From: an uncultured Candidatus Saccharibacteria bacterium
GTDB lineage: Bacteria > Patescibacteriota > Minisyncoccia > UBA6257 > WO2-44-18
Assembly (NCBI GenBank): GCA_964637575.1
Contig: CAZWVU010000001.1
Location: forward strand, 53,009-117,008
Length of the DNA stretch: 64,000 nt
Reading direction: 5' to 3'
Shown: positions 1-34,444 of the stretch, one piece after another
Numbering within the stretch: the stretch's first letter is position 1
Layout: each line of letters begins with the position of its first letter
Program-made: the position numbers and the translations under genes
Notes under the pieces: generated by a model
Databases searched by the model: none
What the model was told of the DNA's origin: nothing
Seen by the model: the letters and a program-made list of their open reading frames with translations, nothing else

Positions 1-297
1 ATTGGGCCGTTTGTAAAAATGCCGGACCGAGGCGAGATAATCAAATTCGTTTACCAAAGAGATACGGAGGAATTTGAAACGATCCCACAGCTTTGGATGC
101 TCCAGCGGCTTTTTTATGTAGGTCACGCCGGGCGACTGAAAATAACCGCCTGCCTTCGCGGCGGCCTCATCCAGCATCGACGTCAGCACCACCACCCGAT
201 AACGCGACGCCAGGTATTCAATATAGTGCGTGCGCAGAAGATCGGAGGTGAAGATGTAGTGGGGGATGCACAGAAAAACAGTTTTATGTGCGGCCAT
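1..297 (-). CDS. Partial CDS (N-terminus in window, continues off the left edge): fourth member of the unassigned GT-B-like paralog family
   Basis: Reverse translation from ATG at 297 gives MAAHKTVFLCIPHYIFTSDLLRTHYIEYLASRYRVVVLTS..., collinear with the N-termini of the 21940-23253 (MKTVFLFLSKEIYALDLLRGDYAKYLSDRYRVVAFV) and 7591-8946 proteins. Not in the ORF track because there is no in-window stop. Confidence 0.5.
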   Translation of the reverse strand, partial: MAAHKTVFLCIPHYIFTSDLLRTHYIEYLASRYRVVVLTSMLDEAAAKAGGYFQSPGVTYIKKPLEHPKLWDRFKFLRISLVNEFDYLASVRHFYKRPN

Positions 298-508
298 ACT
301 TTTGGAGAATTTTTTTAAGGTCCCCCACATTCTTCACTTCCGCCATGTCATTAATATCAAAACGCGTTTTATATTGTTTTTCGAGCTCCTGTATCAGGGC
401 TAGGCCGTTAAACGAATCCCAGCTCGGCGTATTTTCCGGGCTGGTCGCGTCATTGATGGCAGACGGATCGACATTAAAAACTTTTCCTAATATTTGTTCG
501 AGGGTCAT
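284..508 (-). CDS. Acyl carrier protein (phosphopantetheine attachment Ser in WDSFNGLALIQELE)
   Basis: 74 aa, acidic, DSF/DSL-type motif followed by amphipathic helix typical of ACP/PCP. Confidence 0.7.
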   Translation of the reverse strand: MTLEQILGKVFNVDPSAINDATSPENTPSWDSFNGLALIQELEKQYKTRFDINDMAEVKNVGDLKKILQKYGRT

Positions 509-512
509 AGGG

Positions 513-2234
513 TTATTTAGTGGGATTCATTTCCACATCCATCGTGGAAACGTCGCCTGTTTCCATATTCATTTCTTTAGCCCGCAGCACTCTCCGCATA
601 ATCTTGCCGCTTCTGGTCTTGGGGAGTTTTGCAACAAAATCGATTTCGCGCGGCACTTCATGCACCGAAAGATGCTGCTGCACGTATTTCATAATATCGT
701 GCTTCAATGAATCGGCGGCGAGAACGCCCGGCTTCAGAATGATGAATGCTTTAATAATGTTTCCGTAGATATCGTGCGGTTTTCCGATTACACCAGCTTC
801 CGCGACTGCCGGATGGGAAACTAGGGCGCTTTCAATTTCAAACGGACTGATCCGTTCGCCGGCACTTTTGATCATGTCGTCTTCTCTCCCCTGAAACCAG
901 AAATAACCATCCTTATCCTGATAGGCCATATCCCCGGAAATGTACCATTCTTTTTCAAAATAGGACTCGAATTTTTTCTGATTATTCCAGACTGTTTTCA
1001 TAAGCCCCGGCCACGGGATCTTCACGGCCAGACGCCCGATCTGACCCTGAGGCAACTCCTTCGCTTCGTGATCGATGATCGCGGCGGTAATTCCCGGCAA
1101 TGATCTTCCCATCGATCCCTTTTTAATCGGAAGACACCGGTAATTATTGATGAGCTGATGGCCGTTTTCGGTCATATACCAGGAGTCGTGGATGGGGATT
1201 TCCAGATGCTCCATCGTCCAATCGATAAGACTGGGATTGAGCGGCTCTCCGGCGCTGACTATGTGACGCAAATGTTTTAGATTCTCGCGGCCGATAGGAG
1301 CATTATAATAACGCAGAAGCCGGAAGGCGGTAGGCGTGCTGTACCAGACGCTGATATTCATCTTAGCCATAAACTTCACCCATTCAACGGGATGGAAGGC
1401 TCCTTCGTAAAGATGGGCAGCGACACCGAGCAGTAATGGTGCAAAAAAATTATAGACCATGCCAGTGACCCATCCGGGATCGCCCGAGTTCCAATATGCG
1501 TCGTCCGGATGGAGATCGAGGACGTATTGCGCGGTAACGAAGTGCCCGATCATTGCCCGTTGTGCCAGCAGAATTCCTTTTGGCTTGGCGGTCGAGCCGG
1601 AAGTGTAGTGAATGATAAAAGGAGTTTCCAGATCGCCGAATTTGATCACCGAAGCATCGGCCGGACCCTTCAAAAGTTCCTGAACGGGTAAATTGCGTAA
1701 GGACGGGCTGCTCAACTCTGCTGTTCCGTCCGTGACAACATTATGCAAGGTAGGAATATTTTTGAAATCGAGATTTTTCAGCAGCCTCGTATTTACGTAA
1801 ATCCATTCGGCGCCGCAGTCGCCAAGCCGGTCGGTAATGGCATCAGCGCCGAAGGCTTCGAACAAAGGCACGACGACAGCGCCGCACTTGATCGCAGCAA
1901 GCAACACCACCGCATAATCAACGGACTTGGAGGCATAGATACCGAAACGGTCACCCGGCTTGAGTCCCCTGGCCTGCAAAGCTCCGGCCATTATATTGGT
2001 ACGCTCGGCAAGCGTTCGGAACGTGATCCGCTCGACCGCGCCGTCAGCTTTTTGGGCGATCACCGCAGGACGATCTCCCCGTCCCTGGGAAACCTGATAG
2101 TCCGTTATTTCGTAGGCGTAGTTAACTTTGCCGGAAGTATGAAAAGAAAAATTTTTGTGCCATTTTTCCCAGGAAAAATTGCGGCATTCTTTTTCATAAT
2201 TGGTAAAATTCGGCTCCGGCTGCCTGATAGTCAT
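513..2234 (-). CDS. AMP-forming acyl-CoA synthetase (acetyl-CoA synthetase-like short-chain acid ligase)
   Basis: 573 aa; AMP-binding motifs YTSGSTAKPKG, YMTENG, ISGDMAYQDKDGYFWFQGREDDMIKSAGERI. Confidence 0.75.
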   Translation of the reverse strand: MTIRQPEPNFTNYEKECRNFSWEKWHKNFSFHTSGKVNYAYEITDYQVSQGRGDRPAVIAQKADGAVERITFRTLAERTNIMAGALQARGLKPGDRFGIYASKSVDYAVVLLAAIKCGAVVVPLFEAFGADAITDRLGDCGAEWIYVNTRLLKNLDFKNIPTLHNVVTDGTAELSSPSLRNLPVQELLKGPADASVIKFGDLETPFIIHYTSGSTAKPKGILLAQRAMIGHFVTAQYVLDLHPDDAYWNSGDPGWVTGMVYNFFAPLLLGVAAHLYEGAFHPVEWVKFMAKMNISVWYSTPTAFRLLRYYNAPIGRENLKHLRHIVSAGEPLNPSLIDWTMEHLEIPIHDSWYMTENGHQLINNYRCLPIKKGSMGRSLPGITAAIIDHEAKELPQGQIGRLAVKIPWPGLMKTVWNNQKKFESYFEKEWYISGDMAYQDKDGYFWFQGREDDMIKSAGERISPFEIESALVSHPAVAEAGVIGKPHDIYGNIIKAFIILKPGVLAADSLKHDIMKYVQQHLSVHEVPREIDFVAKLPKTRSGKIMRRVLRAKEMNMETGDVSTMDVEMNPTK

Positions 2235-2267
2235 ACCCTCAATAATAGTCGATTTTTAGCTTAAAAT

Positions 2268-2300
2268 CAATTAAAAAATCCACCCCCGAAAGGGTGGATT
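2268..2300 (-). terminator. Intrinsic terminator after the ketopantoate-reductase-like gene
   Basis: 8-bp stem ATCCACCC/GGGTGGAT (2278-2285 / 2292-2299), loop CCGAAA, followed on the minus strand by a U-run (plus-strand A-run 2273-2278). Confidence 0.6.
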
Positions 2301-2311
2301 AGGTGATGTAC

Positions 2312-3280: not shown

Positions 3281-3311
3281 GATACTGGATAATTACTGAA
3301 AAATCAAGTCA

Positions 3312-3347
3312 GCAAAAATAAAAACGGCCCGATTGAAATCGGGCCGA
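3312..3347 (-). terminator. Intrinsic terminator after the ICL-family gene
   Basis: 9-bp perfect stem CGGCCCGAT/ATCGGGCCG (3325-3333 / 3338-3346), loop TGAA, U-run on the minus strand from the plus A-run 3314-3324. Confidence 0.65.
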
Positions 3348-3351
3348 ATGA

Positions 3352-4356: not shown

Positions 4357-4423
4357 GTGCGTTTCTCCTCAACACGTGAAAAGTTCTGACGGTAATGTAC
4401 CACAAAAAATCAGCCCCGGCAAC

Positions 4424-5473: not shown

Positions 5474-5528
5474 AACAAAGAGTGCGCTCCGCGCAATCTT
5501 TGCGATACATCATATTTCGACTGTTTTA

Positions 5529-8946: not shown

Positions 8947-8947
8947 G

Positions 8948-9694
8948 TTATTTTACTTTATCGTAGCGGTCGGGTGTGCCGATGTCGTGCACGTAGTCGT
9001 TTACCTGAACCGGATAGCCGTAGTACGGTTCGGAGCGCTTCAGAATATCCGGCAAAAGCTGGTGATCGATCTCGTAATACCGGCCTTCCGGAATGGAGTC
9101 GAGTATTTTTTTATTGAATACGTAGATTCCCTGCATATCATAGAAATCACCCGCCGGCAGCTGCGCGTGCGGTTTCTGGTAGATAGCCTGAAACCGCATT
9201 GCGCCATCCAGCGCGGCCAGGTCGGAATCAAACGAATGTTCGGTCTTCGCGACGACATGAACTCCGAGGCAGGGCTGTTTGCTCCGGTAATATTCGATCA
9301 GCTTCCGGTAATCGACTTTGTTGAACACATCGCCGTAGACGAGAAGGAAGTCTTCCCCGAGTTGGTGTTCGAATTGTTTCAGCCCTCCGGCGGTGCCCAA
9401 GAGAACCGGTTCGTGGGAATAGGTTATCTTCACGCCAAATGCGGAACCGTCGCCGAAATACCCGGTGATCGATTCGGGGAGATAATGGAGATTGATGAAA
9501 ATTTCCCGGATTCCGTGGCGTTTCAGATGCTCGATCTGATGCCACAACAAGGGCCGGTCGCCGATGGGAGCCATCGCTTTCGGCACGGTGTTGGTCAGGG
9601 GGCGCAGCCGCGTCCCCAATCCGGCGCATAAGATAACTGCCTGCATGTGATACAAAGAATACAATAAAAAAGCTCCGATGTCTATCGGAGCCAT
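8948..9694 (-). CDS. Sugar-1-phosphate nucleotidyltransferase (HddC-like, D-glycero-D-manno-heptose 1-phosphate guanylyltransferase candidate)
   Basis: 248 aa; MQAVILCAGLGTRLRPLTNTVPKAMAPI NTP-transferase signature. Co-located with gmhA and the hddA-like kinase. Confidence 0.6.
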   Translation of the reverse strand: MAPIDIGAFLLYSLYHMQAVILCAGLGTRLRPLTNTVPKAMAPIGDRPLLWHQIEHLKRHGIREIFINLHYLPESITGYFGDGSAFGVKITYSHEPVLLGTAGGLKQFEHQLGEDFLLVYGDVFNKVDYRKLIEYYRSKQPCLGVHVVAKTEHSFDSDLAALDGAMRFQAIYQKPHAQLPAGDFYDMQGIYVFNKKILDSIPEGRYYEIDHQLLPDILKRSEPYYGYPVQVNDYVHDIGTPDRYDKVK

Positions 9695-10515: not shown

Positions 10516-10551
10516 GGAATCTCCTTATCAAAATATCTTCCCATAGAATAC

Positions 10552-10580
10552 ATATAAAAAAGCGGCCCGTAAAGGCCGCT
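10552..10580 (-). terminator. Intrinsic terminator after gmhA
   Basis: Stem AGCGGCC/GGCCGCT (10560-10566 / 10573-10579), loop CGTAAA, U-run on the minus strand (plus A-run 10555-10560). Confidence 0.55.
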
Positions 10581-10591
10581 TCATTGGTGAA

Positions 10592-11236: not shown

Positions 11237-11304
11237 CGGAACTCCTCCAATTCAATGAACTAAGGAACGCCTGTACCTTAATAAAAAAACTGCCGGCGGT
11301 CAAC

Positions 11305-15704: not shown

Positions 15705-15737
15705 AAATCCTCCTTCAATGTTCTAACGGCAAATTAC

Positions 15738-18409: not shown

Positions 18410-19210
18410 CTATTTCTTCTTGGCAATAAAATAAAATCCGGCGGTGATCGTTTCCGCGGACCCGTACCGAGCAAACACGTAATCAAGCAGCTTGAGCGGC
18501 GAAGTAATAATCACCATCAGAATCCAGATCAGGTCTTTCAGGATTTTAATGTTGAAGGAAAGTGCCAGCGCCACCCACTCCTGCATCACCGACAGAAAGG
18601 CGCAGGTCGGGCCGACGTCCGGTTTCAGCTCCAGAATTTCAAACGCGGAGAATAATTCCCGGAGACCGTCGGCCGTCCACCGGTAATAGTCTTTGGGCGA
18701 AGGGTGGTACGGAGTGATGAAGTTGGTGGAAAGATAGAGATGGCCGCCGGGCTTCAGCACGCGGCGCATTTCTTCCGCCACCCGCACGGGATCCTTCATA
18801 TGCTCGAGCACCCAGGCAAACACAATCCCGTCCACCGAATTATCGGCGAAGGGCAGGTCATGGGCGTCCGCCAGAATATCCACGTAGTGCCACGGATGGA
18901 TGTCGACATTCACGATGTCCGGATGAATCCGCCGGTTGCCCGATCCGACTTCCACCACCAGCCCTCCCTTGGGAGCGTAATGAAAAATCGATTTGGGCGG
19001 TTTCCCCAGGAAGAGCGCGGGTGCGACGAAATAAAAAATAAATGAATACAGCCAGGGAATTTTTTTGAGGGCGGTTTTCAGCCGGTTAATGAAACCGGTG
19101 TGGAGATCGCCCCGCATTTCCTCGAATCCGGAATCGGAAATAAAGAGGGGCTTGCCGTCCACCAGCCGTTCCGGATTTTTTTTAAAACGGACCGCGTCAA
19201 GTCTGTTCAT
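18410..19210 (-). CDS. Class I SAM-dependent methyltransferase (type 11)
   Basis: 266 aa; VVEVGSGNRRIHPDIVNVDI motif I, DLPFADNSVDGIVFAWVLEHMKDP motif II/III. Confidence 0.65.
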   Translation of the reverse strand: MNRLDAVRFKKNPERLVDGKPLFISDSGFEEMRGDLHTGFINRLKTALKKIPWLYSFIFYFVAPALFLGKPPKSIFHYAPKGGLVVEVGSGNRRIHPDIVNVDIHPWHYVDILADAHDLPFADNSVDGIVFAWVLEHMKDPVRVAEEMRRVLKPGGHLYLSTNFITPYHPSPKDYYRWTADGLRELFSAFEILELKPDVGPTCAFLSVMQEWVALALSFNIKILKDLIWILMVIITSPLKLLDYVFARYGSAETITAGFYFIAKKK

Positions 19211-21045
19211 TTTTTAATTCTGTAAATTTCCACGGACGGATTTTTGTACACTAATTCTAGGTTCGGATTGTTCCCGAAGTCAACCTGGCTGAATGAACGC
19301 TCCAGCGGGCCCACGTAGACATAGTCAGCCGCAAGATCACTCCAGCGGACATCGGTCTGGCGGTAGCGCGCGAGGAGCTCCTGGATTTTTTCTTCGGGAA
19401 TCGTGGTGATGCCCAGTTTGTAGTAATAGTAGAGCTGATAGAGATGGAGCCGGTCATCCGCCAGATTGCTCGTCGCGTAGACTTTGTCGCAATCCTGGCT
19501 GCAGGGCAGCCCCTTCCCGCCTCGCAATCGCAATTCCAAAATTTTTTCCGAAACGCCGAATATCTTATTGGTTTCCAGATAGCGTTTTTCTATTTCAAAA
19601 TTGGATAACGGCGACAGGCCTCCGATCGGCATCGTCGGCCGCGCGGAACTGAAGGCCATTTCATATACGCCGGTGATGAATGAAGGCGAGACAACCCGGG
19701 GCTCTTTCAGATTGGCGTCCATCCACTGCCAGCTTGCCAGCAGATTTTCCGGCAAACGGTATTCGGAAAGAATCTGCGGGGATGGATGGATAAACCCGGC
19801 GGCGTTTACCAGTTTTTTACCGACCAGAAGCGCGATCATGAGGATCAGTCCGGCAGTAATGAATTTTTTAAGCGCCGGTTTTTTCGCGGCGGCCATTCCC
19901 GCAAGTTCGTACACCAGATCGAACGCCGCCACAAACAGCGGCATATCGATGACGCGCGGCCAGTGATCCGAATGGGGAACAAAGCCCAGCACCACCTGAA
20001 CGTTCCAGACCACCACTGCCGCCGCAAGCAACGACCAGTAGAATACCGCCTTGGATTTCTTTTCCTGAACCCGCCAGAACACGAAATAAATGAGCACCGC
20101 GGCGGCGAGATATAAAAGATAATACGGCCAGGCCGCCCAGCGGAACTGCGACCCCACCTCCAGGCCAAGCCGGTTGATATAGTCTTTGTATCCGAGCTGG
20201 CCGTTGAGCTTCACCTGGCCGAGGAAGTAGGGAATGCTCACGAGCAACACTGTCCCCATCAGCAGGATGAAATTTTTTATCAACGGACGGTTGCCGCGGA
20301 AAAACGCCAGGGCGCCCACAAACATGAAACCGCCGACTGTCACCCAGTAACTCCAGATGTGGAAATACGTGTAGAAAAGCAGGCCGGAAACAAGGCCGGC
20401 AATAATCGCCGTTGAAGGTTTCGGACGCTTCCAGAATATCAGCACCGTCGCGATTGCCGGCAGATACACCAGGCTGGTCAGAAGCGGATAATCCACCCGG
20501 GCAAAAAACAAAAGTGGCAGAAACGTTTTCACCCCGGGGTAGAAATTATTGAGGACAATCGCGGCAAACCGGTCGGGACTGAAGAACGCCTGCGAAAGCA
20601 CGAGCGCCATCGGCGTCAGCGTCCCGACAAACGCCAGGAACAGCGACCAGAGGCGGTTCCGGTCAAATATCAGCCACCCGATCCAGAAAAACAGCAGAAA
20701 GATCCCCGCGGAAAAAACCGCGAGCGCGGCCAGATACGCCGGCGTAATCTGATGAAATAAAAAGACAAAGAGAGAAAGAAGGAGTGGCGGAATTGGCGGA
20801 TAGATATTGGCAAGCGTGTGATCGAAAAACAGATCGGCCGGCGGAAAATGGCCGTCATAAATTTCCCGGGAAAACTGGAAATACGCATCGCCGCCATCAT
20901 CCAGAGTATTAAATTGCGACAATACAAATGTCCGGCCCGAACCGTCGACTGCGCGCTTGATAAGAAGCTGGGGGGCGAGATAAAGGCTGCCCACCAGCAG
21001 GGCGGAGCACGCCACGATGATCCAAAAATACCGGGAACGGCTCAT
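19207..21045 (-). CDS. Polytopic membrane protein, GT-C-like glycosyltransferase candidate (ArnT/PMT-like) with C-terminal soluble domain
   Basis: 612 aa; about 12 hydrophobic segments over 420 aa, then a roughly 180-aa hydrophilic C-terminus. Translationally coupled to the GT2 gene. Confidence 0.4.
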   Translation of the reverse strand: MSRSRYFWIIVACSALLVGSLYLAPQLLIKRAVDGSGRTFVLSQFNTLDDGGDAYFQFSREIYDGHFPPADLFFDHTLANIYPPIPPLLLSLFVFLFHQITPAYLAALAVFSAGIFLLFFWIGWLIFDRNRLWSLFLAFVGTLTPMALVLSQAFFSPDRFAAIVLNNFYPGVKTFLPLLFFARVDYPLLTSLVYLPAIATVLIFWKRPKPSTAIIAGLVSGLLFYTYFHIWSYWVTVGGFMFVGALAFFRGNRPLIKNFILLMGTVLLVSIPYFLGQVKLNGQLGYKDYINRLGLEVGSQFRWAAWPYYLLYLAAAVLIYFVFWRVQEKKSKAVFYWSLLAAAVVVWNVQVVLGFVPHSDHWPRVIDMPLFVAAFDLVYELAGMAAAKKPALKKFITAGLILMIALLVGKKLVNAAGFIHPSPQILSEYRLPENLLASWQWMDANLKEPRVVSPSFITGVYEMAFSSARPTMPIGGLSPLSNFEIEKRYLETNKIFGVSEKILELRLRGGKGLPCSQDCDKVYATSNLADDRLHLYQLYYYYKLGITTIPEEKIQELLARYRQTDVRWSDLAADYVYVGPLERSFSQVDFGNNPNLELVYKNPSVEIYRIKK

Positions 21046-21939: not shown

Positions 21940-23253
21940 TTATTTTACTATGGTATCCAGAAAATCGACATGCCGCTTATACGACATACCATCTTTCACC
22001 GGCATGAAGACGCTGCTCAATGCCGCCCGCTTATCGGCGTCGATTGCCGGATTTTTCAGGTACATGGCGATATAATCGAGACATTCAGCTTCGGTATAGG
22101 CCATGCGGACCGCCCCCGAACGGACAATCGGCTGGTAATGTTCGTAGGTGTAGTGCTTCAGGGTCGGCTGATCCGGCCAGGCAATGTTAATAACCGGCCT
22201 GTCCAGAACGACCCCGTCGATGGAAAGAGTTGAGGTGTAATTCACGTTTACATCCGAGTACAGAAAAGACGCCTTGAGATTAAGAAGGTCGGCTTCCGGA
22301 TTCTTCGGCGCGAATTCCTCCACATGCAGATCCGGCTCCTGCAGAAATTCCCGATATCGTTCGATTGAATCTTTGTAGTGCAGGCGGACGAAAAGATTCA
22401 CATACTCGATGCGCTTTTCCTTTCGTGCCCGCAGCAGCAGGCGGAGCACTTCATCGTGATGAGGATAGACGCCGTGCGAGGTGGTGCTGAAAAAAATCGT
22501 CTTGTATTTCGGATTCAATCCTTTGCTCTTCAAAAATGCGTCGCGGGAAATAAAGTCGGGATACTTCCGGAAATAAGGATCAAGGCGCATCATACCGGAC
22601 ACGAAAATCCGCTCCGCGGGATGCTGGTACAACCGCACCAATTCATCCTGAATAATGCCGTTCCAGACGATGAAATAATCCGGCCGGCGGAACACCTTGG
22701 TCTTGGTGGTCAGATTGTCCCAACTGGCATCAATTGCCGCCGTCGGTATCCCCGCTTTTCGGCCGAACGCGATCGCTTCGGCATCGAGGTTGCTGATGCC
22801 GGGCGTCGCGGTGAGGATCGCCGCGGGCTGGTACTCCTCAGCGTAGCGCCGGAATGCCGCGTATGATGCGCGGGGCAACAGAAGACGTTCAAGAAAAAAA
22901 ATAGCGTCCACTGAAGTAAGGGGGCCGGCCCAGGCGGCAAGTTTCATGATAATTTTTCGGGGAAGCGTGGTGGCGGCTTTTTCCTTTTTAAACCGCTGGA
23001 CGCGCAGCCTATCGAATTGTCTCACCAGAAGCGCCCTCACCCGCTTGGCCATATCCCAAAAACGCGCGTTTTGCACGCGCCAGGGAATATAGATGATTCG
23101 CGGCGACTTCAGGAATCCTTTGTCGGATTCAAGAAGCTCGCTTCGCACAAAGGCGACGACGCGATACCGATCGCTGAGATACTTCGCGTAATCGCCCCGC
23201 AGAAGATCCAGCGCATAAATTTCCTTGGATAAAAATAAAAATACGGTTTTCAT
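21940..23253 (-). CDS. Unassigned GT-B-like paralog family member (437 aa, SWDNLT motif)
   Basis: GIPTAAIDASWDNLTTKTKVF, collinear with the 7591 and 33077 proteins. Confidence 0.5.
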   Translation of the reverse strand: MKTVFLFLSKEIYALDLLRGDYAKYLSDRYRVVAFVRSELLESDKGFLKSPRIIYIPWRVQNARFWDMAKRVRALLVRQFDRLRVQRFKKEKAATTLPRKIIMKLAAWAGPLTSVDAIFFLERLLLPRASYAAFRRYAEEYQPAAILTATPGISNLDAEAIAFGRKAGIPTAAIDASWDNLTTKTKVFRRPDYFIVWNGIIQDELVRLYQHPAERIFVSGMMRLDPYFRKYPDFISRDAFLKSKGLNPKYKTIFFSTTSHGVYPHHDEVLRLLLRARKEKRIEYVNLFVRLHYKDSIERYREFLQEPDLHVEEFAPKNPEADLLNLKASFLYSDVNVNYTSTLSIDGVVLDRPVINIAWPDQPTLKHYTYEHYQPIVRSGAVRMAYTEAECLDYIAMYLKNPAIDADKRAALSSVFMPVKDGMSYKRHVDFLDTIVK

Positions 23254-24065
23254 TATGGACGTTCCAAAATCGGAAATTTCTTCAGACGCTCCTCTTTATG
23301 CGCAAGAAATTCAGCAATCATGCCACTCTTGAACCGTTCCTGCATCCGCAAGATGGATTCCGGCGTAAGGTCTTTTGACCGGCAGAGTTTTCCCGGCACG
23401 GAGCGGTCCTGCGCTTCCGGCGCGATCCGGCCCTGATCGTAGAGGATCAGGCAGCGCCTGAGAAGCTCTGCCCCCGCCATCACCGTCTTGCAGTTAATAT
23501 CGTAGACAGTATCCGATTTCTTCATTTCCGGACGGACCTGGCCGAGCACGGCCCCCGCATCCACTTTCAGGATCGCCAGATGCACGGTCACGCCGACGCA
23601 TTCCGGCTCCCCGTTCACCAGCGGCCAGAAATTAGTGCCCGCGCCGCGGTAGTAAGGAGAAAGCCCGAGATGCATATTGATAATCCTGTTTTCAAAGGCC
23701 GTGAGCAGGGGGTCTTTAATAATGCTTGAACCGAATAAGAGAATGTACTTCGGCTTACGGGCAGTCACCCATTCATACACCTGTTGATCATTGGCGCCAC
23801 CCCAGGGAACTTCAAGGATATCTTCTTTCGCGATTCCATAATCCTTATACGCACCAAAATACGCCGATTCGGCTTCGGCCCGGTTTTTGTCATGCGCTTC
23901 AACTACGGCATTGGCGCCTGAATTCGGATCCTGAAACAGCGGTTTTTTCTTTTCCGTTACCACGCCCGCCACGCGGAAGGTTTCCCCAAGCTTCGTCACC
24001 ACATACCGATGGCGCGGGGCGTTGCCGGTAAATATAAGAACGGGTATTTTTTCCATGATGATCAT
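23253..24065 (-). CDS. Formyltransferase (N10-formyl-THF dependent, Fmt/PurN/ArnA-N fold), sugar N-formyltransferase candidate
   Basis: 270 aa; catalytic motif INMHLGLSPYYRGAGTNFWPLVNGE (N..H...LP..RG) and downstream KVDAGAVL Asp. Confidence 0.65.
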   Translation of the reverse strand: MIIMEKIPVLIFTGNAPRHRYVVTKLGETFRVAGVVTEKKKPLFQDPNSGANAVVEAHDKNRAEAESAYFGAYKDYGIAKEDILEVPWGGANDQQVYEWVTARKPKYILLFGSSIIKDPLLTAFENRIINMHLGLSPYYRGAGTNFWPLVNGEPECVGVTVHLAILKVDAGAVLGQVRPEMKKSDTVYDINCKTVMAGAELLRRCLILYDQGRIAPEAQDRSVPGKLCRSKDLTPESILRMQERFKSGMIAEFLAHKEERLKKFPILERP

Positions 24066-24793
24066 TATTTTTCCCGGAGTACGTAGACAACATTATAGCC
24101 GACCAGTTCCTTCGCGTTCTTTATATGCCTGAAAAGCGGCCAGCCGAGCAGGAGAAGTTTTTCCACCCAGGTCGCGCTCCGGAAAAATGCCGCGTCCCGA
24201 CGGAGAAAGTAATCCTTCCCGGCCAGGTCGAAATATTTAAGAAATGACTTTTCAAATACTCCTTTCGGAAACGCGCTGATGTGATTGTTTTTCGATTTAT
24301 AGCGCGGAAGATCCCCGTGGCGGAAGAATGTCCAACGGTGCTTGAAGGAAAAGATATTGGGCATGGAAACAAAAAAGAGGCCGCCCGGCTTTAGCACCCG
24401 CCTCACTTCGCGGAGAAGATTGTGGGGATTTTCCAGGTGCGGGAGAAGGCACCAGGCCGCCGCCGCGTCGAATGAAGCGTCCGGCCAGGGCAGTGGCTGG
24501 AGACTCAGATCGGCTGTTTTGAAATCATGAATTGCCTCTCTGCCGGCCGGTTGCCGGAAATCACCGATATCGGTGGCGGAAATACGGCCGAAACCCGCCG
24601 TTTTCAGCTGTTCCGCAAAGACGCCCCCCGCGGTGGCGAGATCCAGAACAGCCAGCCCCGACCGGTCGCCCGGATAGTAGTGCTCCACAAGGTCAATCGC
24701 GAACCGGGACTTCACCAGCCGGCCGGCCGAATAATCGGCCATCGCCTGATCGTACCGATCCGACTTCATCTCCTCTTTCGTAAGATATTTCAT
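24065..24793 (-). CDS. SAM-dependent methyltransferase (paralog group A)
   Basis: 242 aa; LDLATAGGVF motif I, FKTADLSLQPLPWPDASFDAAAAWCLLPHLENPHNLLREVRRVLKPGG shared with the 29505 and 32363 proteins. Confidence 0.6.
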   Translation of the reverse strand: MKYLTKEEMKSDRYDQAMADYSAGRLVKSRFAIDLVEHYYPGDRSGLAVLDLATAGGVFAEQLKTAGFGRISATDIGDFRQPAGREAIHDFKTADLSLQPLPWPDASFDAAAAWCLLPHLENPHNLLREVRRVLKPGGLFFVSMPNIFSFKHRWTFFRHGDLPRYKSKNNHISAFPKGVFEKSFLKYFDLAGKDYFLRRDAAFFRSATWVEKLLLLGWPLFRHIKNAKELVGYNVVYVLREK

Positions 24794-25503
24794 TTCTTCA
24801 TCTTAAGAAGGCAGCGGGCCAGCTCCAGGTCAAATACATCATTGATATCATGGGCGCTTGGCGAATCAACCGCAAAGCCCACCCGCTTTCCCGGCTCCAT
24901 CTTTTTTTCTTTCATAAAAGACTCGCGGCTAAACCAATAAATGCCCCCGAAGGCGTAACGCTTCGGATCGGACTGCCGCGTCGGATGGCTGTAGTGTTCC
25001 GCCGGATTATCATATTCCAGATATCCTTCGGATGTGACGTGCCGGACATGGTAGGGATGGAATATTCTCGGCACCTCCACCGTAGAAATGCCGGAGTCGG
25101 CTCCTTTTTCGCGCATAAGATCGAACACGGCGCGGATATGTTCAGGTTTTACAAAGGCGGAGGTAGGCTGGACTACTAATATATAGTCCGGGAGAAATGC
25201 CTCTTTCTCCTCAAGCCAGCGGACGGCATGATCGATGACCGGGGCGGTGGGCGTGGTATCCTGCGCCAGTTCAGCCGGACGGAGAAAGGGTGTTTCGGCG
25301 CCGTGCTTTCTCGCGGCTTCGGCAATGTCGGAATTGTCCGTGCTGACAAATATCCGGTCCACCAGGCCGCTTTTCCGGATCGCTTCGATGGAATAGGCGA
25401 TCAGAGGCCGGCCCTCAAGATCGATAATGTTTTTCCTTGGAATAGACTTGGAATTGCCCCGTGCGGGCACGATCGCTACGTTGTGAAGCTTGCGGGACAG
25501 CAT
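24790..25503 (-). CDS. CMP-sugar synthetase (acylneuraminate cytidylyltransferase family, NeuA/PseF/LegF-like)
   Basis: 237 aa; AIVPARGNSKSIPRKNI...LIAYSIEA...VSTDN CTP_transf_3 signature. Confidence 0.7.
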   Translation of the reverse strand: MLSRKLHNVAIVPARGNSKSIPRKNIIDLEGRPLIAYSIEAIRKSGLVDRIFVSTDNSDIAEAARKHGAETPFLRPAELAQDTTPTAPVIDHAVRWLEEKEAFLPDYILVVQPTSAFVKPEHIRAVFDLMREKGADSGISTVEVPRIFHPYHVRHVTSEGYLEYDNPAEHYSHPTRQSDPKRYAFGGIYWFSRESFMKEKKMEPGKRVGFAVDSPSAHDINDVFDLELARCLLKMKK

Positions 25504-25518
25504 AAAGTTACTACCATG

Positions 25519-26469
25519 CTATCGCGGATTGGAAGGATAGGCAATCTGATTAAGATAATCGCGCAGATGGTTCGTATCGTAACGCGGAATCATAAACGGA
25601 TCGTCTTCCACCCTGGCCGCCCGCGGTTCAATGGTTACCCCGTAATGGAACCCGGCGGCCTTCAGCAAGGGGAACATCTCGGGACGATAATGGCCGTGCG
25701 GATAGGAAAACACCTCCACAGGCCGGCCGACTATCCCGGCCAAATTTTTCTGCGAAAGCTCAAATTCCCGGCGCAAGGCGGCTTCGTCCAGGCCGCGAAG
25801 CGAATGGTGGGAGTGGGAGTGGCTGCCAATGGCCATTCCCCGGTCGGCCAGTTCCCGGATCTGTTCCCGGGTCAGAAAAAGCTGTGCCGCAATCTCTTTT
25901 TCATTTTGAAAATGACCGCGGAACGTGTCCGCGAGAAATTCCTCCCGGACACTGTTCGGTAAAAGCGCTATTACTTCCTTAAAATTCGCGGTCAGCGTCG
26001 TTTCGTACACCCGGGTCACGCTCATTTTCCGGTCGCGGGAAATCGGATACTTCCCGGCAAGGTCGGGGTGCCGGTCTTTTAAAAATTGTTCCAAAAGGCT
26101 CACGAGCTTCTCCGAAGGAATATTGGAAAGGAGAAAGTGGATTTTATGGGTCGCCGGCAGGACGCCCTCCAGCGTGGAACTTACCGGGAAAAACGTGGCG
26201 GTGGCGCGGTGGCGCATGAGCGCCGGCAGGGCGTACTGATAGTTATCCGCCAAACCGTCATCAAACGTAAGGGCGGAAAATACTCCCGCACGTTTCCCGC
26301 GCGCCGCTTCCAAAACTTCCGGAACCGAAACGATCCGCGAATGCTCCGACAAAAACCGCACCTGCCGTTCGAACTCGGCCACCGGGCAGGGATGAATTCC
26401 GGAATGGTCCGGACGCGGATCCTCCACGTAATGATAATTTACGACCAAATAACTGCCTAGGCTTTCCAT
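25519..26469 (-). CDS. Polysaccharide deacetylase (NodB-type carbohydrate esterase 4)
   Basis: 316 aa; TFDDG motif and downstream His-rich motifs (HSHSHH). Confidence 0.6.
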   Translation of the reverse strand: MESLGSYLVVNYHYVEDPRPDHSGIHPCPVAEFERQVRFLSEHSRIVSVPEVLEAARGKRAGVFSALTFDDGLADNYQYALPALMRHRATATFFPVSSTLEGVLPATHKIHFLLSNIPSEKLVSLLEQFLKDRHPDLAGKYPISRDRKMSVTRVYETTLTANFKEVIALLPNSVREEFLADTFRGHFQNEKEIAAQLFLTREQIRELADRGMAIGSHSHSHHSLRGLDEAALRREFELSQKNLAGIVGRPVEVFSYPHGHYRPEMFPLLKAAGFHYGVTIEPRAARVEDDPFMIPRYDTNHLRDYLNQIAYPSNPR

Positions 26470-27419
26470 ATTTTTTTCATCTCCGCAACCACTAATTCGC
26501 TGATATACGCCTGGGTTCGCCCGGTCGCTTCCCGCGTGGCGCCTCCGAGATGCGGGACAATGAGAAGATTCTGATGCTGCCTGGCGTACCGCACCAGAGG
26601 ATTGTTTTTCAGATGACTACCATCCGGCATCTCGCCCGCAAGCGTGTCCACCGCGGCGCCGGCAATCCATTTTTGCCGGAGTGCTTTGAGAAGCGCCCGC
26701 TCGTCGGTAATTTCACCCCGGGCCGTATTGATGAATACCGCCTCCGGCTTCATGAGCCGGAAATGTTGCTCCTGAATAAGCCGGTAGGTGCGGTCATTAT
26801 ATATAGTATGCAGGGAAACAATATCCGCCGTCCGCAGAAGCTGGCCAACGCTGACTTTACGCGCCCCGAATTTCTTCATCACGGCGGCGGAAACATATGG
26901 ATCGCAGGCGGTTACCGACATGCCGAATGCCCGACTGTAACCGGCGACCATTTTCCCCAAACGGCCAAAACCGATCAGGCCGATCGTTTTGCCGGCCAGC
27001 TCGCGTCCGCCGTATTTTTTCCTTTCCCACTCTCCCTTCTGAATCGACGAAAAGGCCCAAGGAATATTCCGGAGCAGGGCCAGCAATAACGCCATTGTTT
27101 CTTCGGCGGTGGATGGGGTATTCCGCAATACGGGAGAGTCCGCTTTGATATTCACCACAGCAATGCCCCGGCGGCGGCATTCGTCGAGGTCGAGATACCG
27201 CAGCTGGGTGGTCCGGCTGCCGATTACTTTCAGTTTCTTTGCCTTTTTCAAAAGCGCCGCATTGAATTTTATATCCAGCGCGGTGACCACCACACCGGCA
27301 GCCGGCAGGTGTTTCAAAAAATTCTTCCGGGAAGAAAAGTCCACGACCCTCCCCGCGGCGGATAGGATTTTTTTCGCATGCGCGTCGAATCCTTCTTCGG
27401 CAATAAGAATTGTAGGCAT
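26457..27419 (-). CDS. D-isomer-specific 2-hydroxyacid dehydrogenase (PGDH-like)
   Basis: 320 aa; GLIGFGRLGKMVAGYSRAFGMSV NAD motif, catalytic R/E/H region. Confidence 0.65.
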   Translation of the reverse strand: MPTILIAEEGFDAHAKKILSAAGRVVDFSSRKNFLKHLPAAGVVVTALDIKFNAALLKKAKKLKVIGSRTTQLRYLDLDECRRRGIAVVNIKADSPVLRNTPSTAEETMALLLALLRNIPWAFSSIQKGEWERKKYGGRELAGKTIGLIGFGRLGKMVAGYSRAFGMSVTACDPYVSAAVMKKFGARKVSVGQLLRTADIVSLHTIYNDRTYRLIQEQHFRLMKPEAVFINTARGEITDERALLKALRQKWIAGAAVDTLAGEMPDGSHLKNNPLVRYARQHQNLLIVPHLGGATREATGRTQAYISELVVAEMKKIWKA

Positions 27420-31064: not shown

Positions 31065-31113
31065 GAAAAATTTTAAAGTTTAAATTTGAAATTTAAAATA
31101 AATGATTAAATTC

Positions 31114-32325: not shown

Positions 32326-32362
32326 TTTTTATGCGGTTTGGTTACACTGATTTTAACGCACC

Positions 32363-33106
32363 ATGCGCTATTTTACCACTGAAGAATTAAAGGAGAACAA
32401 CCGTGACGAGGTGGCGCGCGTCCTCAAGGATTGCGTGGGAAAAAACGTCCGCTACAACCTCGCGTTTGAACTTATTGAAGACTACGCGAAACGCGCCCCG
32501 GCGCCGCAGGAGGTAACAATTCTGGACCTCGGAGTGGCGAGCGGGTATTTTTTAAAACAACTGCACAAGAAGGGGTACCGGAATCTTTTTGCCCATGACA
32601 TCGATGAATACCTGCCGCCGGAAACAAAAAAATTATTCCGGGAGTTCAAAACCGCGGAACTGAACACGGAGAAGCTTCCCTGGCCGGATAATTCCTTTGA
32701 TTTTGTCACCGCCTGGTGCGTCCTGCCGCACCTGGAAAATCCCTTCCATGCCGCCCGCGAGGCGCACCGCGTATTAAAACCAGGCGGCATCTTTCTTTTC
32801 AGCGCGCCCCATCTGACCTCCCGGGGCAGTATCGATTTTTTTCTGAAATACGGATATTTCGCAGGATACCGGGAAACCAACAATCACATCGCGATGCTGC
32901 CGCCCAGCATTGTTAAAAAAACGCTGTCCAAATATTTTACCGTGCTCGACCTGCAATATCTGGTGGTGCCGAAAATTTTCGCCGGCCTCAAGGGCCGCAT
33001 CCGGGAAGCATTATATGGATTTTCAAAACGTTTTCCCAGGTTTCGAACGTACCTGGGAAAACGCTGGGGTTATAACCTAATTTATATCCTGCAAAAACCG
33101 CAGTAA
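32363..33106 (+). CDS. SAM-dependent methyltransferase (paralog group A)
   Basis: 247 aa; FKTAELNTEKLPWPDNSFDFVTAWCVLPHLENPFHAAREAHRVLKPGG. Confidence 0.6.
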   Translation: MRYFTTEELKENNRDEVARVLKDCVGKNVRYNLAFELIEDYAKRAPAPQEVTILDLGVASGYFLKQLHKKGYRNLFAHDIDEYLPPETKKLFREFKTAELNTEKLPWPDNSFDFVTAWCVLPHLENPFHAAREAHRVLKPGGIFLFSAPHLTSRGSIDFFLKYGYFAGYRETNNHIAMLPPSIVKKTLSKYFTVLDLQYLVVPKIFAGLKGRIREALYGFSKRFPRFRTYLGKRWGYNLIYILQKPQ

Positions 33107-34444
33107 TTCGGAAGCAAGCCGCTGGCTGGAGTTTCCGTCAGTTTTATAACAAATCTGCTCAAGCGTTTTCTCCCGCTGCTCATTGTTCCGCGTCGGATCA
33201 TTGGCGTATGCCCCAATCGATTCAATCAGATCGTCTTCATTGGACGCCACGTGGCAACCGCCCCCGCGCGTCAGTGGCTGAAGATGTTCGAGGTCTAAAA
33301 ATTTCCGGATCCCGCCAAAACCGATCAGGATCACCGGTTTTTTAAAAAGCAGGGCGTCCACCGCGATGGTCGACGGGCCCGGCAACACCACGTCGCTGTG
33401 GGCAAGCGAGTTGATAAGATGCCGGTCGGCTTCGGAGTTCAGCTCTCCTTTTCCAAAAAGTTTTGCCGGCCGGTCAAACGCCATATTGGCAGGCGGGACA
33501 AAATTCCCCAGATCAACTTCGCCGATCAGCGGAAAACGTACCAGCACCTGAAATATTCGCGGGTCCAGCCGGCGCAGTAGTTCCAAAATCCGGCGGTTGT
33601 ATTCCTCATGACGCCCGGAAAACTGCTTATGGAGAAACATATCCGCGACGGCAACAAAAAGAATGGTTTTTTTGCCTGGATCAAGGCCGGCGCTCCGGAA
33701 AAATTCCGCGCGGGAATCGGTCCGGGTATTCAGGTATTTGTCATAGTGGGGAATTCCCACCACCACGACATCCCGCGCTGGAATGTGGTTATAGACCCGG
33801 CACTCTTCTTTGATCACCTCATTCCACACCGCGATCCGATCCGGCACCTCCCGGATAACTCCGCGGGTGGTCAGGTTGTCCCAGGAACGGACCATTCCGA
33901 TCACCGGAATCCCGTTCTTTTTCGCCTCCCGAATCAGATCAATGTCGCTGTCGCCGCTGCTCCGGTCGGTAATATCCGTCGAAAATACCAGCGCCGGTTT
34001 ATAGCGTTCGAAATAAATCCGGAATCTGTCGGACGGCAGGGTGTTCCGGTCCAGCCAGCGCACGAACAGGATTGCCGGCTTCCAACCCGCGCAGACGCCG
34101 GTCACGACCCGGCTGCCATAGTAACTGAATGCGGAAAGAACATTGCGGAAATTAGTGCGCATTTTCAAAAACATCCGGCTGGTATTGGTATTGATCAGAA
34201 GCCGCGACAGGGCGCCGATCAGAATTTTCCGCCGGCTCAACGGCGCCACCGGTACGCCTTCAATAATCACTTTTGCCGAGGAAAAATTCTTTTCCAGATA
34301 TTCCCTTTCCTTTTCCGGAGCGAGGATCACGACGCGCACGTTATCCGGACGCGTGACCATGTTCAGGAAATCCGTGTCCAGAAGATTGCGGACAACAAAG
34401 TTGGTAAAGGCCGTTATGAAAACGGTTTTCTGTTCCTGATTCAT
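33077..34444 (-). CDS. Unassigned GT-B-like paralog family member (455 aa, SWDNLT motif)
   Basis: GIPVIGMVRSWDNLTTRGVI; start overlaps (ATGA-type, 4 nt) the stop of the upstream CMP-sugar synthetase gene. Confidence 0.5.
   Translation of the reverse strand: MNQEQKTVFITAFTNFVVRNLLDTDFLNMVTRPDNVRVVILAPEKEREYLEKNFSSAKVIIEGVPVAPLSRRKILIGALSRLLINTNTSRMFLKMRTNFRNVLSAFSYYGSRVVTGVCAGWKPAILFVRWLDRNTLPSDRFRIYFERYKPALVFSTDITDRSSGDSDIDLIREAKKNGIPVIGMVRSWDNLTTRGVIREVPDRIAVWNEVIKEECRVYNHIPARDVVVVGIPHYDKYLNTRTDSRAEFFRSAGLDPGKKTILFVAVADMFLHKQFSGRHEEYNRRILELLRRLDPRIFQVLVRFPLIGEVDLGNFVPPANMAFDRPAKLFGKGELNSEADRHLINSLAHSDVVLPGPSTIAVDALLFKKPVILIGFGGIRKFLDLEHLQPLTRGGGCHVASNEDDLIESIGAYANDPTRNNEQREKTLEQICYKTDGNSSQRLASELLRFLQDIN

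Follow-up and report, generated by a model that had tools for sequence, protein, structure and literature searches.

A SWD branch of the TagF-fold GT-B superfamily in a Patescibacteria surface-glycan cluster, with CMP-ulosonic or nonulosonic sugars as its most likely donors

We report that four paralogous proteins, P1 to P4, whose genes lie in a surface-glycan cluster of 45 kb in a Patescibacteria (CPR) genome, belong by their sequences to a distinct branch of the TagF-fold GT-B superfamily, which we refer to as the SWD branch. Our best reading is that they are membrane-associated, single-addition glycosyltransferases using CMP-linked ulosonic-type donors. With moderate confidence, we consider transfer of a CMP-ulosonic or CMP-nonulosonic sugar on a TagF fold, with one addition per paralog, to be their most likely activity; judged from sequence, the donor is most likely a CMP-activated sialic-acid-like sugar and not glycerol phosphate. 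All analyses concern a 64-kb stretch of DNA, hereafter the window, together with related loci of other genomes.

The coordinates given in the sequence-only reading for three open reading frames proved exact, namely P1 (7591..8946, 451 aa), P2 (21940..23253, 437 aa) and P3 (33077..34444, 455 aa). The fourth, P4, starts at position 297 and is cut by the window edge, leaving only its N-terminal 99 aa (1..297); all four lie on the minus strand. The copies are homologous far above chance, as had been proposed, with BLASTP E-values of 2e-59 (P1-P3), 9e-30 (P1-P2), 7e-30 (P2-P3) and 4e-16 (P2-P4). P4 matches family members of other genomes with up to 74% identity over 95 aa, the 74% being that to the member in locus L027. 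The tripeptide S-W-D was found in all three copies covering that region, at residues 177-179 of P1 (nt 8410-8418), 177-179 of P2 (nt 22717-22725) and 187-189 of P3 (nt 33878-33886). The longer strings, also described earlier as invariant, vary between the copies: P1 carries SWDKLT, while P2 carries SWDNLTTKT, has TVFLF at its N-terminus and shows GMMRLD (22579-22596) in place of the GIP.YD motif seen as GIPQYD in P1 (8272-8289) and GIPHYD in P3 (33740-33757). Conservation of the SWD motif extends well beyond these copies, with D in 149 and W in 144 of 150 members from other genomes, and SWD in 109/110 proteobacterial relatives.

The family had been regarded as unassigned, but P1, P2 and P3 all pass the gathering score of PF04464 (TagF-like), with 24.3, 35.2 and 32.9 bits, respectively, against a cut-off of 22.1, and members already carry the NCBI name 'CDP-glycerol glycerophosphotransferase family protein'. 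These matches fall mostly in the C-terminal half, and genuine TagF-like proteins score 238-412 bits with the same model. The TagF-like candidate was the one chosen by profile searches from the three that had been put forward: hhalign comparison with 6-11 genuine TagF-like proteins gave probabilities of 98.4-99.2% (E 5e-15 to 1.5e-19), and profile matches in the PDB included Cps3D (1e-6) and TarL (9e-5). The suggested GT-B fold was borne out by an AF2 model of P3 (pLDDT 90.8), which has the N-terminal-subdomain helices for monotopic membrane binding. A KpsC/KpsS-type beta-Kdo transferase (PF05159, GT107) was rejected, since P1-P3 have no match to this Capsule_synth profile and lack its reduced, displaced N-domain with a helical subdomain. 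The PseG/MurG-like candidate fell away as well, with no GT28-domain profile match and a likeness to MurG that is generic to GT-B proteins. Among NCBIfam models, the best match of P1-P3 was NF046086 (BFO_1060 family glycosyltransferase; E 6e-12 to 2e-17), but their scores of 45.4, 54.8 and 63.3 bits against a cut-off of 200 mean that they are not members. TIGR04396 (surface carbohydrate biosynthesis protein) was matched by P2 (30.1 bits) and P3 (26.1 bits) below its cut-off of 125, and by P1 not at all.

The SWD proteins might instead not be transferases, but either nucleotide-sugar enzymes of the hydrolysing UDP-GlcNAc 2-epimerase type or catalytically dead scaffolds. Loss of the TagF histidine pair would fit this explanation, as would the order beta4-STD, beta5-SWD, beta7-G.P..D, which may resemble the epimerase series GD.., H.EAG, GN..D. 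We nevertheless hold it to be very improbable. No significant match to Epimerase_2 (PF02350) or NeuC was obtained in Pfam or NCBIfam (best E 0.19), the significant matches being to the TagF and BFO_1060 families, and a bona fide NeuC is already present in the window. Moreover, an array of two to four diverged copies at one locus is typical for transferases, and the strict conservation of D, R, G and D in the family speaks against a dead scaffold.

Comparison of catalytic motifs separates the SWD branch from TagF. In TarL, H300, located in the loop after beta15, acts as base and H433 as acid (PMC10901376); both histidines are essential in TagB, TagF and TarL. QTWHG(T)PLK or WHAxGAF is present in all real TagF-like proteins, with WH in 11/11 examined. 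No WH occurs in the SWD family for the first of these histidines (TagF H444, TarL H300), and S-W-D stands in its place. In the AF2 model of P3, SWD follows the strand 181-184, just before the strands that align confidently with beta16 and beta17 of TarL. The equivalence of WH and WD rests on strand order and has no significant sequence alignment behind it, as profile-profile alignment of the N-domains was insignificant and a low-confidence global path instead sets WH opposite the STD loop. At the second histidine site (K/R-x-H-P; TagF H584, TarL H433), K-x-H of TagF aligns with R-x-P of the family, where R is found in 150/150 members and the histidine column most often holds P (68 of 150), followed by H (31), Y (19) and Q (18). 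The residue is Q in P1 (VRFQP, 8074-8088) and P in P3 (VRFPL, 33527-33541), whereas P2 retains the histidine (VRLHY, 22375-22389). The PL/GAF polyol-binding motif is absent after W-D, where family members show SWDN(L/I/V)TxKG. TagF-like polymerases have an extra N-terminal domain, as described in the TarL paper, which SWD-branch proteins lack.

These differences bear directly on whether the paralogs are phosphotransferases of CDP-glycerol, CDP-ribitol or another CDP-polyol, which would build a teichoic-acid-like phosphodiester wall polymer in a monoderm CPR bacterium, with the AMP-ligase and carrier protein of the cluster acting in a Dlt-like manner. The PF04464 scores above gathering, the NCBI names, the Patescibacteria origin of the window and a C-terminal CMP-binding half clearly homologous to TagF, TarL and Cps3D all agree with such a role, as do the AMP-binding enzyme, ACP and PPTase that adjoin P1 and P4. 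However, P1 and P3 lack both essential histidines, the first is missing from the whole branch, and so is the PL/GAF motif. A TagD-like ORF was detected in only 1/76 related loci, and a TagD search of the window found none; NeuB, NeuC and NeuA-type genes are the neighbours instead. We consider this explanation quite unlikely.

The gene neighbourhoods inside the window, all on the minus strand, place P3 and P2 near sugar-activating genes. P3 is translationally coupled to a NeuA/PseF-like cytidylyltransferase gene (34441..35166; PF02348, E 4.6e-31), the ATGA overlap noted earlier being visible in the junction sequence. Further upstream are an extended SDR resembling UDP-sulfoquinovose synthase (35236..36393; NF041015, 436 bits, below its cut-off of 575), which belongs to the P3 sugar module, a NeuC-type hydrolysing UDP-GlcNAc 2-epimerase (36494..37657; TIGR03568, 294 bits, above its cut-off of 235.9) and a Wzx-type flippase (37729..39123; PF01943) that clusters with flippases of 22 related loci. 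Upstream of P2 is a sugar-tailoring module (23253..27419) made up of a 2-hydroxyacid dehydrogenase (26457-27419), a polysaccharide deacetylase (25519-26469), a PseF-like CTP_transf_3 protein (24790-25503), a methyltransferase (24065-24793) and a formyltransferase (23253-24065), the last with a TAATG overlap with P2. Both CTP_transf_3 proteins of the window score under the PseF cut-off (TIGR03584; 159.6 bits against 205.7 for the one beside P3). Two copies had been said to sit directly after NeuA-like genes; this is correct for P3 but not for P2, which is separated from its CTP_transf_3 gene by the methyltransferase and formyltransferase. Nor does P2 close an operon, since a GT2 gene, a membrane protein gene and 20 more genes continue the co-directional string past it to position 1, with gaps of at most 4 nt or overlaps.

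Within this string lies a 612-aa polytopic membrane protein (19207..21045) with about 10 hydrophobic segments and a C-terminal soluble domain. It has no Pfam or NCBIfam match, and its homologs were found in 16/76 related loci, recurrently beside family members. One nucleotide upstream of P1 is a sugar-1-phosphate nucleotidyltransferase (8948..9694; PF00483, E 4e-30) which reached no NCBIfam model, the best being Man-1-P GTase, MurU and HddC. The start of P4 is overlapped by the gene for a 74-aa acyl/peptidyl carrier protein (284..508; PF00550, 22.7 bits against a cut-off of 20.8). Neither the heptose/octose-like PF00483 context of P1 nor the carrier-protein context of P4 is a CMP-ulosonic one. 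The nonulosonic-acid genes of the window are NeuC and the two PseF-like genes, and no synthase of the NeuB or KdsA type was found in its 64 kb, so no ulosonic acid pathway is complete there. The ulosonic donor is therefore inferred.

The SWD branch comprises 2,080 clusters (50%-identity clusters at E up to 1e-30), almost all from Patescibacteria, and multi-copy arrays are general among them, with 2-4 copies per locus. The use of CMP-sugars, argued earlier from gene order in the window, is supported by comparative genomics through the contrast between NeuB, NeuC or CTP_transf_3 and TagD as neighbours. At least one of the former three was found in 30/40 related loci (75%; loci of at least 15 kb, genes within 8 kb), NeuB itself in 23, its identity being confirmed by Pfam. 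Direct adjacency of a family gene to CTP_transf_3 is rare (5/161). P3 orthologs with 51-54% identity show the synteny Wzx-NeuC-SDR-CTP_transf_3-[P3]-MTase in three loci (L001-L003), which includes the extended SDR. NeuB, NeuC and CTP_transf_3 also share a cluster with a family member in Rhizobium sp. WL3, Polaromonas, Herbaspirillum and a Rickettsiales MAG. In Rhizobium and Herbaspirillum, the family member immediately follows CTP_transf_3; in Polaromonas, it comes three genes behind CTP_transf_3, and in the Rickettsiales MAG it immediately precedes a second CTP_transf_3 gene.

Other subgroups keep different company. P1 orthologs (62-69% identity) lie behind TAL-SIS-GmhB-NTP_transferase and before PPTase in L057 and L058, the synteny with the TAL-SIS-GmhB-NTP_transferase module being shared by L046, and P4-type paralogs pair with AMP-ligase and ACP. 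P1 and P4 may therefore serve other modules, P1 that for NDP-heptose/octose and P4 that for carrier-protein acylation. The four copies had been taken to suggest iterative or multi-site nonulosonic transfer; multiple copies are indeed the rule, but four nonulosonic transfers is too strong a claim because P1-type and P4-type paralogs are syntenic with these other modules. The same P1 synteny would fit a general GT-B family that uses whichever NDP-heptose/octose, UDP-/GDP- or CMP-sugar the adjacent module provides, the CMP link being limited to subgroups like P3, and the precomputed Pfam labels of the proteobacterial branch, which alternate between PF04464, PF13439 and PF02350, point the same way. 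Against this, the sole domain with significant similarity to characterised enzymes is the CMP-binding one, which the TagF and BFO_1060 families share; NulO genes predominate among the shared neighbours, and ordinary GT4 and GT2 enzymes also occur at these loci and could take the NDP-sugars. We regard it as unlikely.

CMP-ulosonic-type transfer, the reading we prefer, can be put in terms of a single-domain enzyme of about 450 aa. Its strongly basic helical insert (residues ~60-150), with a net charge between +6 and +13, would probably anchor the protein at the cytoplasmic face of the membrane, beside a lipid-linked acceptor. The C-terminal Rossmann domain, still recognisably TagF-like, would bind the cytidine nucleotide, with CMP as the leaving group. 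In the N-terminal domain, the invariant Ser-Trp-Asp loop is placed on the strand where TagF and TarL have Trp-His, and its Asp would deprotonate the acceptor hydroxyl as general base. Phosphate stabilisation, a task of the second histidine in TagF, may fall to helix dipoles and the invariant Arg of R-x-(P/H)-P. The donor is more likely a CMP-ulosonic or CMP-nonulosonic acid from the neighbouring NeuC and PseF-like modules, CDP-glycerol or CDP-ribitol being unlikely; with such a donor, the reaction would be glycosyl transfer. Since each paralog falls in its own orthologous subgroup tied to one sugar module, the four probably each contribute a different residue to the same glycan, as opposed to one enzyme iterating. 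What we observed is the homology, the fold, the conserved motifs, the missing His pair and the gene neighbourhoods; the donor, the function of the Asp, the attachment to the membrane and the single addition are inferences.

It is tempting to go further, and we do so tentatively. The SWD branch could represent a new family of glycosyltransferases that the name 'CDP-glycerol glycerophosphotransferase' conceals at present, one which arose from a TagF scaffold by exchange of the His-His pair for Asp/Arg and so moved from phosphoryl transfer to glycosyl transfer of CMP-nonulosonic and other acidic sugars. Its arrays would then build a teichulosonic-acid-like surface polymer, heavily formylated, methylated and acylated, as a hallmark of the Patescibacteria envelope. 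We think this broader proposal possible but rather doubtful.

Transferases of Pse, Leg and related acids are the least-known step in the assembly of bacterial sialic-acid-like glycans, and only a handful have been characterised. Here a large family, systematically mislabelled as teichoic-acid enzymes or 'hypothetical', lacks the residues on which the phosphotransferase activity of TagF depends and tracks NeuB/NeuC/NeuA in CPR bacteria and Proteobacteria. It also offers candidates in cultured hosts, namely Rhizobium sp. WL3, Polaromonas sp. YR568 and Herbaspirillum. That a reduced-genome Patescibacterium spends at least 45 kb on what appears to be a single elaborate surface glycan bears on how episymbionts present themselves to their hosts.

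Among known systems, KpsC/KpsS (GT107), WbbB (GT99), KpsS1 (GT118) and KrkA (GT140) are encoded in capsule and O-antigen loci and use CMP-linked Kdo or Pse as donors (PMC12887879); unlike P1-P3, these retaining ulosonic-acid transferases combine a reduced N-domain with an additional helical subdomain. The sialyl- and polysialyltransferases of GT38, GT52 and GT80, and WaaA (GT30), are GT-B enzymes using CMP-linked ulosonic donors, as proposed for the SWD branch, with an acidic base in the N-domain and an 'HP' motif in the C-domain (PMC5420450). An HP-like motif is seen as CRCHP in the proteobacterial members and as R-x-H-P in 31/150 CPR members. There is, however, no sequence-profile match to these families, the resemblance covers a short motif, and most SWD-branch members, P1 and P3 among them, can dispense with the HP histidine.

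TagF, TagB, TarF, TarL and Cps3D (PF04464) share the GT-B fold, membrane-binding helices in the N-domain and a homologous C-terminal nucleotide domain, in which KKxIL(F/Y)AP corresponds to kkviLyAPT, (S/T)(S/T)xxxD to DYSSxxFD, and the C-terminal DGxSxxR to DG.aseR; both groups are expected to release CMP. In the SWD branch, W-H is replaced by W-D and K-x-H-P by R-x-P/H/Y/Q-P, the PL/GAF polyol loop is missing, the catalytic strand is followed by a loop shorter by about 19 residues, TagD neighbours are nearly absent, and the N-domains cannot be aligned by sequence. SpsB of Bacillus subtilis is TagB-like and encoded beside a legionaminic acid pathway, but its deletion does not reduce surface Leg (PMC7439481), which calls for caution in deducing function from neighbourhood.

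The closest parallel is found in Tannerella, where the O-glycan of T. forsythia depends on the founding BFO_1060 members for its terminal Pse/Leg derivative (PMC5420450). NF046086, to which Tanf_01245 and TFUB4_00887 belong, is the best curated-profile match for P1-P3, weak but collinear over both domains. Function in Tannerella is known from genetics alone, and the proteins described here differ in occurring as multiple copies and in CPR bacteria. Like P1-P3, the Tannerella proteins are about 445 aa long and TagB/GT-B-like. Their genes neighbour those for CMP-nonulosonic acid biosynthesis and for methyltransferases, a setting seen around SWD-branch relatives in other genomes and in part in the window, which has NeuC and two PseF-like genes but no NeuB. 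The reaction of the SWD branch would be analogous to that of these TagB-like Pse/Leg transferases of T. forsythia.

Three full-length paralogs were found as open reading frames on the minus strand, namely P1 (7591-8946, 451 aa), P2 (21940-23253, 437 aa) and P3 (33077-34444, 455 aa), together with a 99-codon N-terminal fragment of a fourth, P4 (1-297), cut by the window edge; all these coordinates agree with those of the sequence-only reading. Their proposed homology was confirmed far above chance by BLASTP (P1-P3, 2e-59; P1-P2, 9e-30; P2-P3, 7e-30; P2-P4, 4e-16), and P4 shares 74% identity across 95 residues with a family member of another genome. The TagF-like assignment, one of several candidates at the outset, was borne out, since P1, P2 and P3 all pass the gathering score of PF04464 (Glyphos_transf, TagF-like). 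Their scores are marginal, 24-35 bits against a gathering value of 22.1 with coverage mostly of the C-terminal half, as compared to 238-412 bits for genuine TagF-like proteins. Eleven such genuine proteins were taken from plasmids for comparison (two of them adjoin tagD), and hhalign of the family against them gave probabilities of 98.4-99.2%. A 22-member family profile also matched the solved TagF-like enzymes Cps3D (8QOY, 1e-6) and TarL (8VA1, 9e-5). The best NCBIfam model for P1-P3 was NF046086, 'BFO_1060 family glycosyltransferase' (45-63 bits vs a cut-off of 200), followed in P2 and P3 by TIGR04396 (26-30 bits vs 125).

In the structure-match list, NeuC and WecB-type epimerases scored 21-23.5, GT4 enzymes about 20-21, TarL 20.0 with the highest identity (17%), MurG 19.4, TagF 19.2, WaaA 19.0, Bcs3 15.7 and polysialyltransferase 15.4, and KpsC- and WbbB-type enzymes were not found in the top lists. 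That the paralogs are epimerase-like or inactive proteins is highly improbable in our judgement, as no significant profile match supports it. The KpsC/KpsS and GT99/107/118/140 candidates were rejected; PF05159 gave no match and none of them was among the top structural matches. The D/E-D/E-G and HP short-motif arguments of the Tannerella and SpsB papers were set aside because P1, P2 and P3 differ in the candidate stretches.

When 1.84 billion cluster representatives were searched exhaustively with the family profile, 2,080 matched at E values of 1e-30 or lower and 5,788 at 1e-10 or lower. Representatives of ~850-940 aa (e.g. P0249, P0250, P0253, P0261 and P0263) carry two full SWD-type domains in tandem, and are natural fusions of two paralogs. 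A one-genome-per-species scan gave 193 loci, of which 76, nearly all from Patescibacteria MAGs, were kept and their ORFs called and clustered. These contain 164 family genes, with one, two, three and four copies in 20, 27, 26 and 3 loci, respectively. Within 8 kb of family genes, CTP_transf_3 (NeuA/PseF-like CMP-sugar synthetase) was present in 30 of the 76 loci, Pfam-verified NeuB (nonulosonic acid synthase) in 27 and NeuC (hydrolysing epimerase) in 24; of the 40 loci that span 15 kb or more, 30 had at least one of the three and 11 had all three. Each of the window paralogs has a separate set of orthologs whose gene order is conserved. P3-type genes lie in the order Wzx-NeuC-SDR-CTP_transf_3-[P3]-MTase(opposite)-SHMT-FolD in the related loci L002 and L003, with SHMT and FolD replaced by 2-HacidDH and NeuB in L001; P1-type genes lie in the order TAL-SIS-GmhB-NTP_transferase-[P1]-PPTase in L057 and L058, and P4-type genes have AMP-ligase, ACP, FkbH-like and GNAT-like genes nearby.

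TagB, TagF and TarL, the teichoic-acid CDP-polyol phosphotransferases, need two invariant histidines: a base within a Trp-His pair in the loop after strand beta15 (TagF H444, TarL H300), and an acid in the loop after beta19 (TagF H584, TarL H433) (PMC10901376). All 11 retrieved genuine TagF-like proteins carry QTWHG(T)PLK or WHAxGAF, and the Trp-His pair was not found in the family (150 full-length members from 76 other loci). As for the central motif that the sequence-only reading took to be invariant, Ser-Trp-Asp is indeed shared by P1, P2 and P3, but the longer strings are merely approximate (SWDNLTTKT and GMMRLD in P2, SWDKLT in P1). The motif does hold outside the window copies, with S in 132, W in 144 and D in 149 of those 150 members, among which G230 (150/150) and R303 never vary and D235 is replaced only by E, in 2 members (148 D). 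Where the profile alignment is confident, TagF K-x-H falls opposite the family's R-x-P; the second-histidine column reads P in 68, H in 31, Y in 19 and Q in 18 of the 150 members, and Q, H and P in P1, P2 and P3, respectively.

In the structural model, SWD comes after strand 181-184, which directly precedes strands 203-206 and 226-228, both aligned confidently with TarL beta16 and beta17, while the TarL Trp-His comes after beta15 (PMC10901376). From this strand order and topology we infer that SWD would take the position of the TagF/TarL Trp-His. We go no further because hhalign of the N-domains, family against TagF-like, was insignificant (probability 1%) and the global or low-mact paths, inconsistent in register and of low confidence, differ from this placement. 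Sequence proof failed, as the local alignments end at the strand following SWD; in Pfam coordinates, Trp-His falls near HMM position 104, ahead of the start of the P2 match at position 128. We consider it improbable that the paralogs are true CDP-polyol phosphotransferases; the loss of the histidines (both in P1 and P3, the first in P2), of the polyol loop and of TagD speaks against it, a TagD-like gene being found in 1 of the 76 loci.

Relatives outside the Patescibacteria were also observed. A plasmid tblastn search with P2 gave one match, a Rhizobium sp. WL3 protein of 464 aa (WP_147885260.1) that is annotated as 'hypothetical protein' and is a full-length family member (225 bits to the family HMM) with the motifs GSWDQPTTKG and CRCHP. 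Its gene directly follows neuC and an acylneuraminate cytidylyltransferase gene, and a NeuB-family gene is in the same cluster. Similarly, a Herbaspirillum sp. member directly follows CTP_transf_3, that of Polaromonas sp. YR568 lies three genes after it, and that of a Rickettsiales MAG is flanked by NeuC and a second CTP_transf_3. Of 110 proteobacterial family proteins, 109 carry SWD; these proteins are almost always annotated as 'hypothetical protein', and their precomputed Pfam labels vary (PF04464, PF13439 or PF02350). Further 445-513-aa 'hypothetical' proteins adjoin a second CTP_transf_3 in proteobacterial NeuB/NeuC/NeuA clusters (L083 490-6339; L084 234-1571; L085 945-2321 and 3024-4382); those of L083, from Rhizobium, match the family HMM weakly (E 1e-6 to 1e-11), and the group may represent still more diverged GT-B relatives.

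Positions 1 to about 45,300 form a single surface-glycan cluster. At 45 kb or more, it is a sizeable part of a CPR genome, such genomes being typically small. It encodes a Wzx flippase, one GT2 and six GT4 enzymes, a NeuC-type hydrolysing epimerase above the NCBIfam cut-off, two PseF-like CTP_transf_3 proteins (155-160 bits, below the cut-off of 205.7), a 2-hydroxyacid dehydrogenase, a deacetylase, a formyltransferase and seven methyltransferases, with SHMT and FolD alongside. No NeuB-type synthase was detected in the 64 kb by tblastn with the Pfam-verified NeuB of the related locus L024. P3 does directly follow a cytidylyltransferase through a real ATGA overlap, as had been claimed; P2, which had also been placed directly after one, is two genes away from its cytidylyltransferase and joins the formyltransferase gene by a one-base overlap (TAATG). 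Neither does P2 close an operon, as a run of 28 co-directional genes extends from 27419 down to position 1, its members overlapping or separated by gaps mostly below 80 nt. An SDR (35236-36393, minus strand) best matches UDP-sulfoquinovose synthase (436 bits vs a cut-off of 575), and its place between NeuC and the cytidylyltransferase is kept in four genomes. SHMT and FolD (30282-32325, minus strand), syntenic downstream of the P3-type gene in L002 and L003, look like a dedicated 10-formyl-THF supply for N-formylation by the sugar formyltransferase (23253-24065, minus strand).

The minus-strand gene string at 8948-18360, whose PF00483 nucleotidyltransferase ends 1 nt before the P1 start, also encodes a transaldolase/FSA-like protein, a SIS isomerase, a GHMP kinase, a NUDIX protein, two epimerases, a GFO/IDH/MocA oxidoreductase, an SDR and a B12-binding radical-SAM protein, and is syntenic with P1-type paralogs in L046, L057 and L058. 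We take it to resemble NDP-heptose synthesis or the lincomycin GDP-octose route, and the radical-SAM gene hints at C-methylation or some other uncommon tailoring reaction. On the P4 side, a carrier-protein acylation module (284-7643, minus strand) comprises a 74-aa ACP, overlapped by P4, two AMP-binding ligases, a PPTase, a 349-aa GNAT-like protein, a PEP-mutase/isocitrate-lyase-family protein and a ketopantoate-reductase-like (PanE-like) protein. Related loci have FkbH-like proteins and ACPs at the equivalent position, and the module hints at glycan N- or O-acylation with an unusual hydroxy-acid.

A 612-aa protein (19207-21045, minus strand) with ~10 hydrophobic segments and a ~200-aa C-terminal soluble domain had no Pfam or NCBIfam match; its homologs lie beside TagF-fold genes in 16 of the 76 related loci, and it might act as a polymerase, a ligase or a GT-C-like enzyme. 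Two of the six GT4 proteins (39120-44267, minus strand; 716 and 794 aa) are double-length with two Glycos_transf_1 stretches each, and a small methyltransferase gene sits between them. Immediately outside the cluster lie a TPR protein (45279-46121, minus strand) and a 1253-aa protein (46124-49885, minus strand) whose sole recognisable feature is an N-terminal peptidoglycan-binding domain; the latter could be a surface protein anchored in the wall and perhaps a target of glycosylation. A phosphoglucomutase/phosphomannomutase is encoded by two minus-strand ORFs with a 4-nt overlap (58806-60112; domain I at 59696-60112, domains II-IV at 58806-59699), a split that may be genuine or due to a frameshift or sequencing error. 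The window ClpB is 80-91% identical to Patescibacteria/Parcubacteria proteins, which assigns the window to a CPR bacterium. Neither tRNA genes nor Rfam families at gathering threshold were found across 1-64000.

The conserved protein half is the cytidine-nucleotide-binding domain that TagF also has. The diverged half, where the acceptor and the group to be transferred are positioned, no longer carries the residues for phosphotransfer; the family's neighbours would make CMP-activated acidic sugars, not CDP-polyols. On the simplest reading, which we hold to be somewhat probable, the family, with P2 and P3, consists of inverting-type GT-B glycosyltransferases with CMP-linked ulosonic/nonulosonic donors. 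The same model is weaker for P1 and P4, because their modules suggest an NDP-heptose/octose-type sugar and carrier-protein chemistry, respectively. A donor-promiscuous GT-B family, with CMP donors used by some subgroups only, is partly compatible with this model, and we think it rather unlikely. Under the CMP-donor model, D189 (P3 numbering) would serve as the base, and departure of CMP might be assisted by R303, or by the histidine in P2 and the proteobacterial branch. The acceptor would be lipid-linked and the enzymes would act at the membrane, which is supported by the basic insert of the paralogs (net charge +6 to +13). In the TarL study, polymerases were associated with an extra N-terminal domain (PMC10901376); the family proteins do not have it, and therefore we consider it more likely that separate paralogs each make single additions than that they polymerise iteratively.

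Our literature searches found no description of the SWD branch, its size or its dominance in Patescibacteria, its multicopy arrays, its loss of the TagF histidine pair, or, in cultured Proteobacteria, its association with NeuB/NeuC/NeuA genes, and none of CPR nonulosonic acids or of a characterised SWD-branch member. Among known systems, Bacillus subtilis SpsB is TagB-like and adjoins a legionaminic acid (Leg) pathway, yet is dispensable for Leg transfer (PMC7439481), a negative result that cautions against over-reading gene neighbourhoods. A TagB-like protein as nonulosonic-acid transferase is already published for Tannerella: BFO_1060 is the strain 92A2 ortholog of T. forsythia Tanf_01245 and TFUB4_00887, TagB-like proteins whose deletion leads to loss of the terminal pseudaminic/legionaminic acid derivative from the O-glycan (PMC5420450).
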